DNA of 64,000 nt from an archaeon GW2011_AR15 (GTDB lineage Archaea; Nanobdellota; Nanobdellia; Woesearchaeales; GW2011-AR15). The stretch covers positions 1 through 64,000 of the forward strand of contig CP010425.1 of assembly GCA_000830295.1 (NCBI GenBank), read 5' to 3'. The position numbers and the translations under genes are program-made. The notes below the pieces were generated by a model, which ran no database searches, was not told the DNA's origin, and worked only from the letters and a program-made list of their open reading frames with translations. This document shows, piece by piece, positions 28,845-32,967 of this stretch (positions are counted from its first letter, which is position 1; each line of letters starts with the position of its first letter).

Positions 28845-28988
28845 GGGGGAAAAATAAAATGGCAGCAAAGCAAATCAATCCTTTTAACAAAAGCATTGAT
28901 GGAAAAATATCAAGGACTACATTAACTGCGTTAAGTAGTCCGAATGAAAAACTCAAAGGGGGAAAATAAAATGGCAGCAAAACAGATC
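28845..28988 (+). promoter_or_regulatory. Duplicated groEL start enclosing a two-hairpin element and a 36-codon uORF (28859-28969)
   Basis: GGGGGAAAATAAAA(A)TGGCAGCAAA occurs twice; hairpins at 28874-28900 and 28914-28941. Confidence 0.75.
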
Positions 28989-30608
28989 ATATTCGATGAA
29001 AAAGCAAGGCAGGCGCTGTTGAGGGGAGTCAACAAGGTAATGGATACTGTCTCAGTTACACTGGGGCCGAAAGGAAGGTGCGTTGCGCTTGACTCCGGAT
29101 TCGGCAGCCCGACAATAATCAATGACGGCGTTACAATAGCAAAAGAGATTGAGCTTGAGGACAAGTTTGAAAACGTCGGGGCCCAGCTTGTGAAAGAAGT
29201 AGCTGAAAAATCACAGGAAGTCGCAGGAGACGGCACAACAACTGCCGTAGTTCTTGCAACCCACATAATAAGGGAAGGAATCAAGAACATAACAGCAGGA
29301 GCAAGCCCGACAGAGCTGAAAGAGGGAATTGAAAAAGCAGCAGAAAAAGTTGTTGCCTATCTGAAAGAGCAGAGTGTTGATGTGAAAGGGAAAGAAAAGA
29401 TTGCGCAGGTCGCGACAATCTCAGCCAACAACGACGAAAAAATCGGGAAGCTCATTGCAGACGCAATGGAAAAAGTCGGAAACAACGGCGTCATAACAGT
29501 CGAGGAGGCAAAAGCCCTTGAGACAACACTTGAAGTTGTCGAGGGAATGCAGTTCGACAAGGGATTCGTATCGCCGTACATGGTGACAAACCCTGACAAG
29601 ATGCTGACAGAGCTTGACGACCCTGTAATATTATTGTATGACAAGAAGATAAGCTCAATGAAGGAGCTCCTTCCATTGCTTGAACAGGTTGCGCAGGAGG
29701 GCAGTCCGTTCGTGATAATAGCAGAGGATATTGAAGGAGAGGCACTGGCAACCCTTATACTGAATATGATAAGGGGGGCATTCAAGGCAGTTGCTGTAAA
29801 GGCTCCCGGATTCGGGGATGACCAGAAAGAGATGCTTGAGGATATTGCAGTCCTTACAGGAGCAAGAGTCATCAGCGAGGACAAGGGGATGAAGCTCGAG
29901 ACAGCTACGCTTGACGACCTCGGAAGGGCAAAGAAAGTGAAAGTTGACAAGGACAAGACAGTGATTGTAGGGGGCCACGGAGAGCCTGCTGCAATAAAGA
30001 AAAGGGTTTCGCTGATAGAATCCCAGGTAAAAGTAAGCGATTCAGATTACGACAAGGAAGACCTCAAGAAAAGGCTTGCAAAGCTGAGCGGCGGAGTTGC
30101 CGTCATAAATGTCGGAGCAGCAACAGAGACAGAGATGAAAGAGAAGAAATCAAGGGTTGACGACGCGCTTCACGCAACAAGGGCAGCAGTTGAGGAAGGC
30201 GTTGTTGCAGGAGGGGGAGTAACCCTGCTGAAAGCATCCAGGGTGCTTGACTCATTAAAGCTTGAGGGAGACCAGCAGGTAGGGGTTGAGATAGTAAAGA
30301 GGGCATGCCAGGCTCCTGTAAAAGTAATTGCAAAAAATGCAGGAAAAGAGCCAAGCATAGTGGTTGACAAACTGCAGAAGGGCGAGGGCCACCTGGGATA
30401 CAATGCAAAGACTGACAAGTTCGAGGACATGTTCAAGGCAGGCGTGATAGACCCTACAAAAGTAACAAGGACTGCGCTGCAGAACGCAGTCAGCATAAGC
30501 ACAATGCTCCTTATAACAGAGGCGGTTGTGACAGACATCCCTGAAAAAGAGGGCAGCAAGCCGCAGATGCCGCAGATGGGCGGAATGCCCGGCATGGGCA
30601 TGATGTGA
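28971..30608 (+). CDS. groEL: Group I chaperonin GroEL
   Basis: [28 protein letters not shown] and GGM tail. Confidence 0.97.
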
Positions 30609-30667
30609 GGTTTTAACTTTTTTATTTTAAGTTATTATGGGGCAATCCCAATAAAACCCCCTGAAAA

Positions 30668-31150
30668 ATGGCAAGGAAAAAAGAAGAGAAAAAGCAGGAA
30701 GAAAAGGTTCAGGAAGCAAAAGAGCTGAGCAAGGATGAAGTAATTGCCGAGCTTACTGACATGCTGAAGAGGACCCAGGCTGAATTCATCAACTACAAGA
30801 ACCGGGTTGAGAAGGAAAATAAAGAAGCCTACGAATACTGTTCAGCAGACCTTGTAAAAAAGCTGCTGCCTGTGCTGGACAGCTTTGAGCTGGCCTTCAA
30901 AAATACCGGAGAAGCCGGGAAATTCAGGCAGGGGATGGAGATGGTGTATGCCCAGCTGGTTGATGTGCTTGAGCATGAGGGACTGAGGAGAATAGATGCA
31001 GAAGGAAAGAAATTCGACCCTTACAGGCACGAGGTGCTGATGAAAGACAAGTCAGACAAGAGCCCTGACATCGTGCTTGAGGAATTCCAGAAAGGCTACA
31101 TGTTCAAGAATAAAGTGGCAAGGCATTCAAAAGTGAAGGTGTCAGAGTGA
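30668..31150 (+). CDS. grpE: Nucleotide exchange factor GrpE
   Basis: AEFINYKNR, LLPVLD, FDPYRHE and QKGY. Confidence 0.95.
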   Translation: MARKKEEKKQEEKVQEAKELSKDEVIAELTDMLKRTQAEFINYKNRVEKENKEAYEYCSADLVKKLLPVLDSFELAFKNTGEAGKFRQGMEMVYAQLVDVLEHEGLRRIDAEGKKFDPYRHEVLMKDKSDKSPDIVLEEFQKGYMFKNKVARHSKVKVSE

Positions 31151-31725
31151 AGATAAAATATGATACCGCAAAAGAGCAGGTTTTGAAGCTTGTGCACCCG
31201 TGCAAATGCAGAAAATGCGAGAATCCCTGCAGCTACGGCTCAGGGGCTTTTATCGGGGATGAGGCAGAGAAGCTTGCTGAATTTTTGAAGATAACAAAAA
31301 AAGAGGCAGAGGAAAAATACCTCGAGAAAATAGAGAAATTCAACACGACCTTATGGAGGCCGAAAGTCGAGAGGAAGGAAGGCCTTCCTTTCGGGAAGTG
31401 CATTTTTTTCGACAGCGAAAAGGGATGCACAATACACCAAGTAAAGCCTACTGAATGCAGGCTCGCAATGGGCTGCAAGGATTACGGGGAGGACATCATA
31501 ATCTGGTTCATGATGAACCATTACTTCAACCCTGATGACCCGGAGTCAGTAAGGCAGTACAAAATATATGCAGAATCAGGCGGGAAAATACTGGAGGGCG
31601 CAGAGCCTGAGAAGTTCACTCACACAGTGGCAGAAGATTACAAAGACCTGAAACAGGAAAGGGACTGGGAAAGAATCCTTGGAATAAAAGACGCAGAGGC
31701 AAAAGAAAATGGAAAACGCAAATAA
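31147..31725 (+). CDS. YkgJ-family cysteine cluster protein
   Basis: CRKCENPC...CIFFD...CTIHQVKPTEC. Confidence 0.8.
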   Translation: MKIKYDTAKEQVLKLVHPCKCRKCENPCSYGSGAFIGDEAEKLAEFLKITKKEAEEKYLEKIEKFNTTLWRPKVERKEGLPFGKCIFFDSEKGCTIHQVKPTECRLAMGCKDYGEDIIIWFMMNHYFNPDDPESVRQYKIYAESGGKILEGAEPEKFTHTVAEDYKDLKQERDWERILGIKDAEAKENGKRK

Positions 31726-32017
31726 GCAAAAAATGTACCTCAAGCCAGAAGCCATACTGAAATACCTTATGGGAGAGGAAAAGCTTCACACGCTGATTAC
31801 GACACAGAACACAGAAGTAAACCTGATAACTACAGATCAGAGCCTTTACGAGGCACTTGGAAGCGTTGATGACAGGAGCAAGATAAACCTTAACCTGCTT
31901 GTCAAGCTGCTTGAAGTTGTGAAGATTGTGCCCCATGATGAGATGGCAAAAGAGGAGAGGAAAGTGCTGAGCCCTGAGAGGGCAGAAGAGCTCAGGAAGA
32001 GTGTGGAATGGAAATGA
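31709..32017 (+). CDS. Hypothetical protein (possible degenerate PIN-like fold)
   Basis: 102-aa ORF overlapping both neighbours in the operon. Confidence 0.6.
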   Translation: MENANKQKMYLKPEAILKYLMGEEKLHTLITTQNTEVNLITTDQSLYEALGSVDDRSKINLNLLVKLLEVVKIVPHDEMAKEERKVLSPERAEELRKSVEWK

Positions 32018-32820
32018 AAGAGTTTATACTGGAGGTCGCAAAAGAGGTCGGAGAGCTGGCGATGGAATACCTTGGAAAGGCAAAAGTCTCAGACAAGGGT
32101 CCGAAGGATGTTATAACTGAAGCAGACCTTGCAGTAGAGAAGCTCATAATAAAAAAAATCAGGGAGAAATACCCCGGCCACAATATTGTGGCAGAAGAGT
32201 CCACGAATAAAAATTCAGGCTCAAGATACAGATGGTATATTGACCCTATAGACGGCACCCATAATTACGCGCACGGAGACCCGAATTTCGTGGTTTCAAT
32301 AGGAGTGACCGAAGATGGGGAGCTGAAATATGCGTGCATAAATTTCCCGTACATGAAGGACATGTATTACGCAGAAAAAGGAAAGGGCACAGAGCTCAAC
32401 GGAAAAAAAGTCCGTGTCTCAAGAGCCTCAACACCTGACAGGGCAATGATACAGCTCGGCATAAGCCCGCTGAAGGATGCAATTGATGATTCGCTGAAAT
32501 TGTTCAGGTATTTCACAGTGCACTACCTTAAAGCAAGGGATTACGGGTACACTGCGGGACAGATGGCATTTGTTGCTTCAGGGAAGGCAGACGGCTATCT
32601 GAAGATAGGGCAGCATCCGTGGGATGTTGCTGCAGGAATACTGATTATTGAAGAGGCAGGAGGGAAAGTGACTGATTTCAAAGGGAATAAAATAAAACTA
32701 GGCGGGAAATCAGAGCTTTACAACCTGGTTGCCTCAAACGGCCTGTTACATGATCAGCTACTAAAAGAGCTTGACAGCAAAGAGCTGAAGAGCATTGATA
32801 AAAATAAAACATGGTATTGA
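32008..32820 (+). CDS. Inositol monophosphatase family protein
   Basis: AEE, IDPIDGTHNY and WDVAAG. Confidence 0.93.
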   Translation: MEMKEFILEVAKEVGELAMEYLGKAKVSDKGPKDVITEADLAVEKLIIKKIREKYPGHNIVAEESTNKNSGSRYRWYIDPIDGTHNYAHGDPNFVVSIGVTEDGELKYACINFPYMKDMYYAEKGKGTELNGKKVRVSRASTPDRAMIQLGISPLKDAIDDSLKLFRYFTVHYLKARDYGYTAGQMAFVASGKADGYLKIGQHPWDVAAGILIIEEAGGKVTDFKGNKIKLGGKSELYNLVASNGLLHDQLLKELDSKELKSIDKNKTWY

Positions 32821-32825
32821 GAAAA

Positions 32826-32967
32826 AACAAGGAGATGATATGAAATGTCAAAAATAATCGGAATGAACCTTTTAAGAAAACGTTCACGAAAACAAATTAA
32901 GGACTACATTGGCAAGCCAAGTAGTCCGAACAAGGAGATGATATGAAATGTCAAAAATAATCGGAAT
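32826..32967 (+). promoter_or_regulatory. Duplicated dnaK start (39-bp perfect direct repeat) enclosing a two-hairpin element and a 33-codon uORF (32845-32946)
   Basis: AACAAGGAGATGATATGAAATGTCAAAAATAATCGGAAT at 32826-32864 and 32929-32967; hairpins at 32864-32886 and 32901-32927. Confidence 0.8.

Follow-up and report, generated by a model that had tools for sequence, protein, structure and literature searches.

Two-hairpin repeat at the starts of groEL and dnaK of the archaeon GW2011_AR15 is a dispersed element and probably a mobile module

Bacterial groE and dnaK operons are preceded by CIRCE/HrcA operators, in which a 9-nt inverted repeat encloses a 9-nt spacer, and by ROSE and fourU thermometers. 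Small structured repeats of other kinds include miniature inverted-repeat transposable elements (MITEs), REP/REPIN sequences, Correia elements and Rickettsia palindromic elements; e14 at icd and the CIME elements are integrating elements with a regenerated gene end. Integrating plasmids and proviruses of the SSV1 and pNOB8 types also regenerate the end of the tRNA or gene, and a mobile element in Caldiarchaeum brought an intron and left a tRNA fragment (PMC3293823). A 2014 review (PMC4090602), which cites Fujishima et al. 2010 for non-canonical bulge-helix-bulge (BHB) tRNA introns and their 'transposition', describes the mechanism of archaeal tRNA intron 'transposition' as unknown. Here we analyse a two-hairpin element located in front of both groEL and dnaK in the first 64,000 nt of contig CP010425.1 of the archaeon GW2011_AR15 (assembly GCA_000830295.1; hereafter the window). 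The element is a dispersed repeat and not a dedicated chaperone switch. Judged from the titles of records that contain its hairpin 1, the family to which it belongs is a 60–90-nt non-coding two-hairpin repeat of Woesearchaeota-like (DPANN) archaea. We consider it rather likely that the element is a non-autonomous mobile module, which enters gene and tRNA ends with fixed polarity and duplication of the terminal segment, and which is kin to, and perhaps the same as, the mobile T-loop introns of this lineage.

Each of the two chaperone genes is preceded by a displaced copy of its own start (S1), the element core, and a second copy of the start that belongs to the intact gene (S2). The positions in the window are as follows.

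28830–28877, + strand: displaced copy S1 of the groEL repeat, comprising the end of groES, the ribosome-binding site (RBS), a decoy ATG at 28859 and codons 1–6 (repeat search and reading)
28859–28969, + strand: groEL decoy open reading frame (ORF) of 36 codons, which runs through the element and stops 1 base before the groEL ATG
28875–28945, + strand: groEL element core with hairpin 1, A-rich linker, hairpin 2 and GAAT tail (covariance model R1, 95.8 bits)
28942–28989, + strand: copy S2 of the groEL repeat on the intact gene, with the RBS and the true ATG at 28971 (repeat search; ORF 28971–30608 matches the Cpn60 family)
32826–32864, + strand: displaced copy S1 of the dnaK repeat, comprising the RBS, a decoy ATG at 32845 and codons 1–6 (39-nt exact repeat)
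32845–32946, + strand: dnaK decoy ORF of 33 codons, which runs through the element and stops 1 base before the dnaK ATG
32864–32931, + strand: dnaK element core with hairpin 1, linker, hairpin 2 and tail (R1 match, 62.5 bits)
32929–32967, + strand: copy S2 of the dnaK repeat on the intact gene, with the RBS and the true ATG at 32948 (ORF 32948–34846 matches the HSP70 family)

The direct repeat at groEL is 48 nt long, with 85% identity and a spacing of 112, and that at dnaK is identical in 39/39 nt with a spacing of 103. The core between the repeats measures about 68 nt at both genes. Hairpin 1, which contains a C·C mismatch, occupies positions 28874–28900 at groEL and 32864–32886 at dnaK. Hairpin 2, which contains a bulged A, occupies positions 28914–28941 and 32901–32927, respectively, and its inner stem is TTAAC/GTTAA at groEL versus TTGGC/GCCAA at dnaK. 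The hairpin-2 arm pattern has two matches in the window and occurs in 0/100 shuffles, and the fold z-scores of the cores are −4.3 (groEL) and −4.7 (dnaK). In their coding parts, the two groEL repeat copies are distinguished by two synonymous changes alone, AAG/AAA and CAA/CAG, and the residues SSPN are encoded in both decoy ORFs. The initial annotation had described the repeated RBS and first codons, the two hairpins with their mismatch, bulge and differing inner stems, the synonymous differences between the groEL copies, and the two upstream ORFs (uORFs) with their SSPN residues and stops, and all of these are present in the sequence.

It had also called for support of both duplications by reads. 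Logan contigs of further metagenome runs span the entire groEL arrangement and match it exactly (X4 record 9, X6 record 17 and X8 record 26; X4 and X6 belong to one study and X8 to another). The 39-mer of the dnaK repeat forms a unitig of its own with a depth of 13.9, about double that of its flanks (~8), the core forms a separate unitig, and the dnaK unitigs agree with the assembled order. Two metagenome contigs from a diverged organism, L130 and L131, carry a dnaK arrangement of identical layout. An in-frame ATG is located 27 nt upstream of the groEL start (28944–28970), within the element tail and the second repeat; its use would add nine residues (MKNSKGENK) to the protein, and the ORF list takes it as the start.

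The covariance model R1 was built from three copies of equal length with a hand-written structure. The search with R1 identified 9 copies in the 1.16-Mb genome of GW2011_AR15 and 102 copies in 19/20 genomes of the family; the single family genome without any match is 89% complete. A scan of the GW2011_AR15 genome for the hairpin-1 motif added 3 copies with other hairpin-2 types, which gives a total of 12. We fetched and aligned 61 of the 102 family copies, from 56 loci. Only 3/61 are located at chaperone starts, namely those of groEL and dnaK in GW2011_AR15 and of groEL in genome G391, which contradicts the proposed confinement of the element to chaperone genes. Copies are equally frequent at the 3′ ends of genes and tRNAs and at starts. 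In GW2011_AR15, 5/12 copies follow a tRNA gene, 7–45 nt beyond its 3′ end and antisense to it. Further copies in this genome adjoin the gene for a class-II (D/K/N) aminoacyl-tRNA synthetase at its 3′ end and a small ORF at its 5′ end. The third copy with the hairpin-2 pattern lies between long direct repeats behind the 3′ end of an unrelated 181-residue ORF.

The exact hairpin-1 pattern occurs in 44 stretches of named genome records. The titles of 27 of these name Candidatus Woesearchaeota and those of 4 name Nanoarchaeota, Nanoarchaeia or Nanobdellati; the other 13 comprise 8 'uncultured Methanosarcinales', 2 Altiarchaeota, 1 Aenigmatarchaeota, 1 'archaeon' and 1 Pseudomonadota. The bare hairpin-2 pattern was rejected as a family marker, because it was found in 10/401 genomes of the order versus about 58 for the reversed control. 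The pattern is thus not diagnostic outside the family, and the covariance model was used instead. Neither the hairpin-1 nor the hairpin-2 pattern matched viral contigs (0 matches). No Rfam family matched the region at gathering thresholds, or positions 28780–33000 at E values up to 1, and no description of such an element was found in the literature on Woesearchaeota or DPANN repeats and tRNA introns, supplementary files excepted.

The two-hairpin structure is conserved through covariation. In the alignment of the 61 copies, which was fitted to the covariance model and so favours the structure, 95.8% of the cells in the 22 base pairs are paired, versus 33–50% with slid partners. Changes on both sides were found in 21/22 pairs, and 0/500 shuffles reached the observed values. 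G-U cells are rare (14/1244, own count). The conserved unpaired positions are the C·C mismatch, G58, the AAA of columns 61–63, the TTAA that precedes hairpin 2, the bulged A and the GAA tail. The constant part of the element consists of hairpin 1 and the linker, and hairpin 2 occurs in several unrelated-looking types. The element begins with TCAAGCC... and ends with ...GTCCGAAT, and its two internal hairpins are the only inverted repeats that it contains.

Variants of this anatomy were also observed. Two genomes of the same genus contain an element that is enlarged by a further two-hairpin module, about 55 nt long, on the 3′ side of the hairpin-1 C·C mismatch (L015 ~1398–1532 and L016 ~1812–1936), one of them at groEL. 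Units resembling hairpin 1 (...CCTTTTAGAAAAGC.TTGA.GGAAA) stand in rows with short A-rich spacers, in an array-like arrangement of the hairpin-1 module, in L102, L104, L112, L118, L119, L120, L126 and L127, which are named Woesearchaeota and Nanoarchaeota records. The start of a thermosome-like gene of GW2011_AR15 (~1024525–1024600; ...RTTLGPKGMDKML, by reading) has the 14-nt word AAGGACTACATTGG in common with dnaK hairpin 2, which is probably a chance match. By reading, the organism thus has an archaeal chaperonin beside the bacterial-type GroEL and DnaK.

With fixed thresholds for repeat detection, 29/61 copies have a direct repeat abutting both ends. The repeat is 15–89 nt long in these 29 copies, and flanking repeats range from 12 to 89 nt overall. 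In most cases it represents the terminal segment of a gene or tRNA: the RBS and first codons, the last codons and stop, or the 5′ or 3′ part of a tRNA. The intact gene or tRNA lies only on the hairpin-2 side in 17 of these 29 copies and only on the hairpin-1 side in none; 9 copies were unassigned, and the 3 with a gene on both sides involve operon neighbours or doubtful ORFs. Because of this fixed polarity, the element is in sense orientation upstream of 5′ ends and in antisense orientation downstream of 3′ ends. By reading, the stop codon is 0–6 nt away from 3′-end copies at several loci, and the inner repeat boundary in tRNAs is at or near the T-loop intron site. Arrays of the form repeat–element–repeat–element–repeat, with repeats of constant extent, are present at a tRNA-like 3′ end. 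Some targets are occupied recurrently. A copy is present at the 3′ end of the synthetase gene in four genomes, which belong to two genera, at the groEL start in GW2011_AR15 and G391, and at the 5′ end of tRNA-Pro in G067 and G391; a copy in G406 lies behind the tRNA-Pro 3′ end. At one contig end (L045, G402:C3), a 34-nt repeat resembling the 5′ part of a tRNA up to the seeming anticodon stem is followed by the element, twice, and the contig stops partway through the later of the two elements, perhaps because they belong to an array or because the repeat disrupted the assembly.

The initial annotation had offered, as its alternative, a small element that inserts at highly expressed starts with long duplications. 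Insertion and long duplications come close to our best explanation, but the restriction to starts is too narrow, since copies lie at 3′ ends as frequently and the polarity is fixed.

The element resembles MITEs and other small repeats in being short, non-coding, structured, geneless and multi-copy, in its position at gene edges, and in its patchy distribution among relatives. It differs from MITEs in the lack of terminal inverted repeats, in flanking repeats that are 12–89 nt long and variable rather than short and fixed, and in its strict polarity to the intact gene, and no related transposase was found among the four families tested. Unlike the hairpin elements of IS200/IS605, the copies are flanked by repeats, and the genome contains no Y1 (HUH) transposase. 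Features in common with integrating elements are direct repeats of the gene or tRNA end at both borders, a gene that stays whole, tandem stacking and a boundary in the T-loop. However, the element is only ~70 nt long and without an integrase, one core serves many targets, and the dnaK repeat is host-derived. Intron transposition, the Caldiarchaeum-type element, MITE-like repeats and end-regenerating integrators each have defining features that the element fails to show.

A relationship with tRNA introns is indicated by five loci in named records, at which the hairpin-1 module and the A-rich linker form the 5′ end of a 105–157-nt insert in a tRNA. These inserts sit between T-loop positions 59 and 60, and also contain a second hairpin and a conserved 3′ tail. 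Their junctions form a canonical BHB motif, in which the T-stem provides the outer helix, TTCA/TGAA the central helix flanked by two 3-nt bulges, and CAAGC/GCTTG the inner helix. A BHB scanner detected the motif at the expected junction in 4/5 inserts, and ARAGORN recognized a tRNA at 0/5 of the loci as they are and at 4/5 after in-silico removal of the insert. Similar insert sequences occur in different tRNAs. A genome of the same genus contains two such T-loop inserts, and tRNA-Ser was recovered for 1/2 of them. At one locus, the same tRNA has both a T-loop insert and an antisense downstream copy of the element with a repeat of the 3′ exon.

The copies at groEL and dnaK differ from these introns. 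They are flanked by long direct repeats and lack the BHB motif and the 3′ tail of the introns, 3′-end copies elsewhere are antisense, and the two chaperone genes are intact without any removal, unlike the tRNAs with T-loop inserts. The scanner found 0 motifs at dnaK and 2 weak ones at groEL, with 3 bp per outer helix, compared to shuffle means of 0.36 and 0.74. Since it finds many chance matches in AT-rich DNA, its negative results weigh more than its positive ones. Because the motif is absent, the element should stay in the mRNA leader of both genes. Splicing-out of exactly one repeat period, which could keep both repeat copies coding, was considered and rejected, because a scan constrained to the period at 14 loci returned chance palindromes and nothing consistent.

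Long introns interrupt many tRNA genes of these genomes at the canonical position or close to it, and a second intron lies in the T-loop of some (named records L125, L107 and L111; in GW2011_AR15 at 75757–75886, 580535–580665 and 763772–763882). ARAGORN run without its intron option misses intron-bearing tRNAs, and standard annotation therefore probably undercounts the tRNAs.

Comparison of orthologous sites shows that the element is a discrete unit. The dnaK site is empty in 5/5 family genomes examined, and the groEL site is empty in G170, G328 and G236, which are 3/4 resolved family genomes; the groEL start of G067 is unresolved. At groEL of G391, another variant is present and is flanked by a separate, perfect repeat of 31 nt. 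The L130 organism has the dnaK copy, but its groES–groEL spacer of 13 nt is empty. The dnaK core of L130 and L131 represents the same variant at the same position as in GW2011_AR15 and differs from it in 3/68 positions, whereas the surrounding 5.6 kb are 73–77% identical, and the identity falls exactly at the core ends. Both repeat copies of L130 carry the synonymous states of that lineage within the inner 28 nt, which indicates that the core alone, and not the core with its repeat, is shared between the lineages, and that the two repeat copies remain similar to each other within one lineage. The opposite relation is found at the synthetase site of four genomes, where the cores are 39–60% identical versus 67–79% for the flanking gene. 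These comparisons point to a unit that would turn over at preferred sites, while the copies of its flanking repeat probably undergo gene conversion.

Nine copies at 5′ ends were compared, namely seven loci of family genomes, one more in GW2011_AR15, and L130. In 8/9, a decoy ORF traverses the whole element, with its stop at −18 to +5 relative to the true ATG; for 7/9 the stop falls within −6 to +5. The decoy stop forms an ATGA overlap in two copies and lies inside hairpin 1 in one. By reading, just one of the three frames of the consensus core is open, and the decoy ORF therefore appears to be selected. The position of the stops resembles coupling of uORFs to the downstream gene by termination and reinitiation; the uORF here differs from those systems in that it arises from the duplicated start of the gene itself.

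Based on these observations, a course of insertion can be proposed. The element would enter the DNA close to either end of a gene or tRNA in a fixed polarity, so that its hairpin-1 end becomes joined to a point 12–89 nt inside the gene. The hairpin-2 end would face a second, complete copy of the terminal segment, which leaves the gene whole, and a short displaced copy would stay on the hairpin-1 side. When the hairpin-1 module lands in sense orientation in the T-loop of a tRNA and is accompanied by the 3′ tail that completes the BHB motif, the product would be a spliceable intron. At groEL and dnaK, ribosomes that initiate at the decoy start may melt the hairpins and be released at the true RBS and start codon, so that chaperone expression is kept. 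The insertions may persist because translation of the chaperones continues via the decoy ORF.

Several points weigh against mobility of the element. No partner enzyme was found among the four protein families tested. Y1 transposases have 0 matches in GW2011_AR15 and are present in 8/20 family genomes, the TnpB-type zinc ribbon was found in 0/20, and reverse transcriptases are present in 3/20, to which GW2011_AR15 does not belong. Tyrosine recombinases occur in 19/20 genomes; their presence is unrelated to copy number, and GW2011_AR15 has only an Xer-like gene and a weak 166-residue match. We know of no transposition chemistry that yields polar target duplications of 12–89 nt. Within GW2011_AR15, the identity between two cores does not exceed 88%, and for comparisons with the dnaK core it reaches 70% at most, even though the repeat at dnaK is perfect. 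Nothing in these values indicates recent movement inside the genome, which also does not contain the source of the dnaK copy. Function rather than recent spread could account for the 96% conservation of the dnaK core between lineages, and the contigs are uninformative about polymorphism between filled and empty sites within a population. Finally, 16 coding repeat pairs with 194 codons contain 43 synonymous versus 7 non-synonymous codon differences, among them the serine codons AGT/TCT, the arginine codons AGA/CGC and the leucine codons CTT/TTA. If the displaced copy had simply decayed neutrally after a plain duplication, most differences would be non-synonymous. The bias therefore requires gene conversion combined with selection, or alleles from other lineages. 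Conversion could expose changes in the displaced copy to selection, and other alleles could occasionally replace the copy on the gene side.

Most of the 20 family genomes contain a small (166–200 residues) tyrosine-recombinase-like ORF with degenerate-looking catalytic motifs, about one per genome, for example at L082 1709–2272 (− strand) and in GW2011_AR15 at 119548–119967 (+ strand). Three genomes have this ORF no further than about 1 kb from copies of the element, with tRNA-Pro nearby in two. We rejected this ORF as the partner, because the tRNA-Pro hotspot intervenes in two genomes, the ORF is also present in the genome without copies, and it looks degenerate.

A more far-reaching form of the mobile-module explanation, which we put forward tentatively, is that the element is the DNA-level form in which BHB introns move. 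A single insertion module would then serve T-loop-like sites and gene ends alike. Insertion into a T-loop in sense orientation would create a spliceable intron, and at all other sites the insertion would survive only through the duplication of the terminal segment.

An unlikely explanation, which is compatible with a mobile origin, is that the element is a generic cis-acting sequence useful to the host, spread around the genome and retained at every site by selection. Its role could lie in protein binding or in RNA processing or stability; antisense copies, as a hairpin followed by a T-rich tract, could instead terminate transcription directly after stop codons and tRNAs. Such a role fits the unpaired positions conserved across the 61 copies, the strong covariation and the position of 3′-end copies within 0–6 nt of stop codons. 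The scarcity of G-U cells would be expected of a structure needed as DNA or on both strands. At dnaK, the core is better preserved in L130 than its flanks, which are 74–77% identical. On the other hand, the copies at the synthetase site have diverged further than the gene that they adjoin, close relatives manage without the element at groEL and dnaK, one family genome is without matches altogether, and no Rfam family corresponds to it.

We regard as doubtful the explanation by a miniature integrative cassette, in which the element arrives together with an imported gene end that replaces and displaces that of the host, in the manner of integrating plasmids and proviruses at the 3′ ends of tRNAs or genes, or in which a small circle of element and repeat enters by homologous recombination. 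The repeat copies differ in the way that two functional alleles do, as seen in the 43:7 ratio, the tandem arrays preserve a constant repeat extent, and the inner repeat boundary of the tRNAs is, by reading, in the T-loop, a classic place for integrase crossover. The Caldiarchaeum element cited above provides a precedent. Nevertheless, the genome contains no dedicated integrase, and one conserved core would need to serve many targets. A cassette is suggested by the synonymous bias, but for dnaK it is countered by L130, whose repeats have their own synonymous states and which shares only the 68-nt core.

The initial annotation had favoured an RNA that regulates the two chaperones, and only these, in cis, for example as a thermosensor or translational-coupling leader. 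This explanation is very improbable, and the census brings it close to refuted, since occurrence at many unrelated loci is the outcome that the annotation itself had named as refuting. The element does resemble CIRCE and the thermometers in placing inverted repeats before both chaperone genes, and the variants at groEL of G391 and dnaK of L130, together with decoy ORFs that end at the true start, fit a regulatory role. However, the arms of the element (GGACTAC/GTAGTCC), its 12–14-nt interior and its T/A-rich hairpin 1 differ from the CIRCE consensus. The family is not restricted to heat-shock genes, and most chaperone sites of relatives, including groEL of L130, are empty. At both genes, the true RBS and ATG lie downstream of the two hairpins, which is not a thermometer-like design. 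The only pairing of an RBS is that between the hairpin-1 CCUUUU and the true RBS in a fold of the longer groEL leader, with an ensemble frequency of only 0.05. The absence of an Rfam match also speaks against this explanation. Assembly artefacts as the source of the duplications can be dismissed: the 39-nt perfect repeat exceeds the 31-letter contig words, so that no contig crosses the dnaK arrangement, but three other runs from two studies cross that of groEL without differences, the order of the dnaK unitigs agrees with the assembly and the repeat has about double depth, and L130 and L131 contain the dnaK arrangement in a diverged organism.

The region 28551–35507 encodes, in this order, Cpn10, Cpn60, GrpE, a CxxCxxCC-domain protein, a 102-residue ORF without family, an inositol monophosphatase family protein, HSP70 and a uridine-kinase-like protein. 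This chaperone neighbourhood is unusual in that no dnaJ adjoins dnaK. Several gene identities in this study come from reading short peptide motifs; those of the chaperone region of the window and the synthetase were tested against Pfam. The cumulative GC skew, as a measure of replication strand bias, was too noisy to place the origin. The contig ends in 100 N (1157691–1157790), which may be the pad of a closed circle or a gap.

The element combines an unusual set of properties: long and variable duplications of gene ends, strict polarity, repeats that preserve the encoded protein, a decoy start and kinship with T-loop introns. A shared inverted-repeat leader of groEL and dnaK mimics a heat-shock regulator, and its identification as a passenger removes a false lead. 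For annotation, the family explains why gene starts and ends are duplicated in these genomes and why some tRNA genes are missed. Should the kinship stem from a single insertion process, the gain of introns in archaea becomes testable by sequence data and simple biochemistry. If the element is indeed the mobile form of BHB introns, it would provide the first concrete handle on the transposition of archaeal tRNA introns, and an insertion chemistry that produces long polar target duplications.

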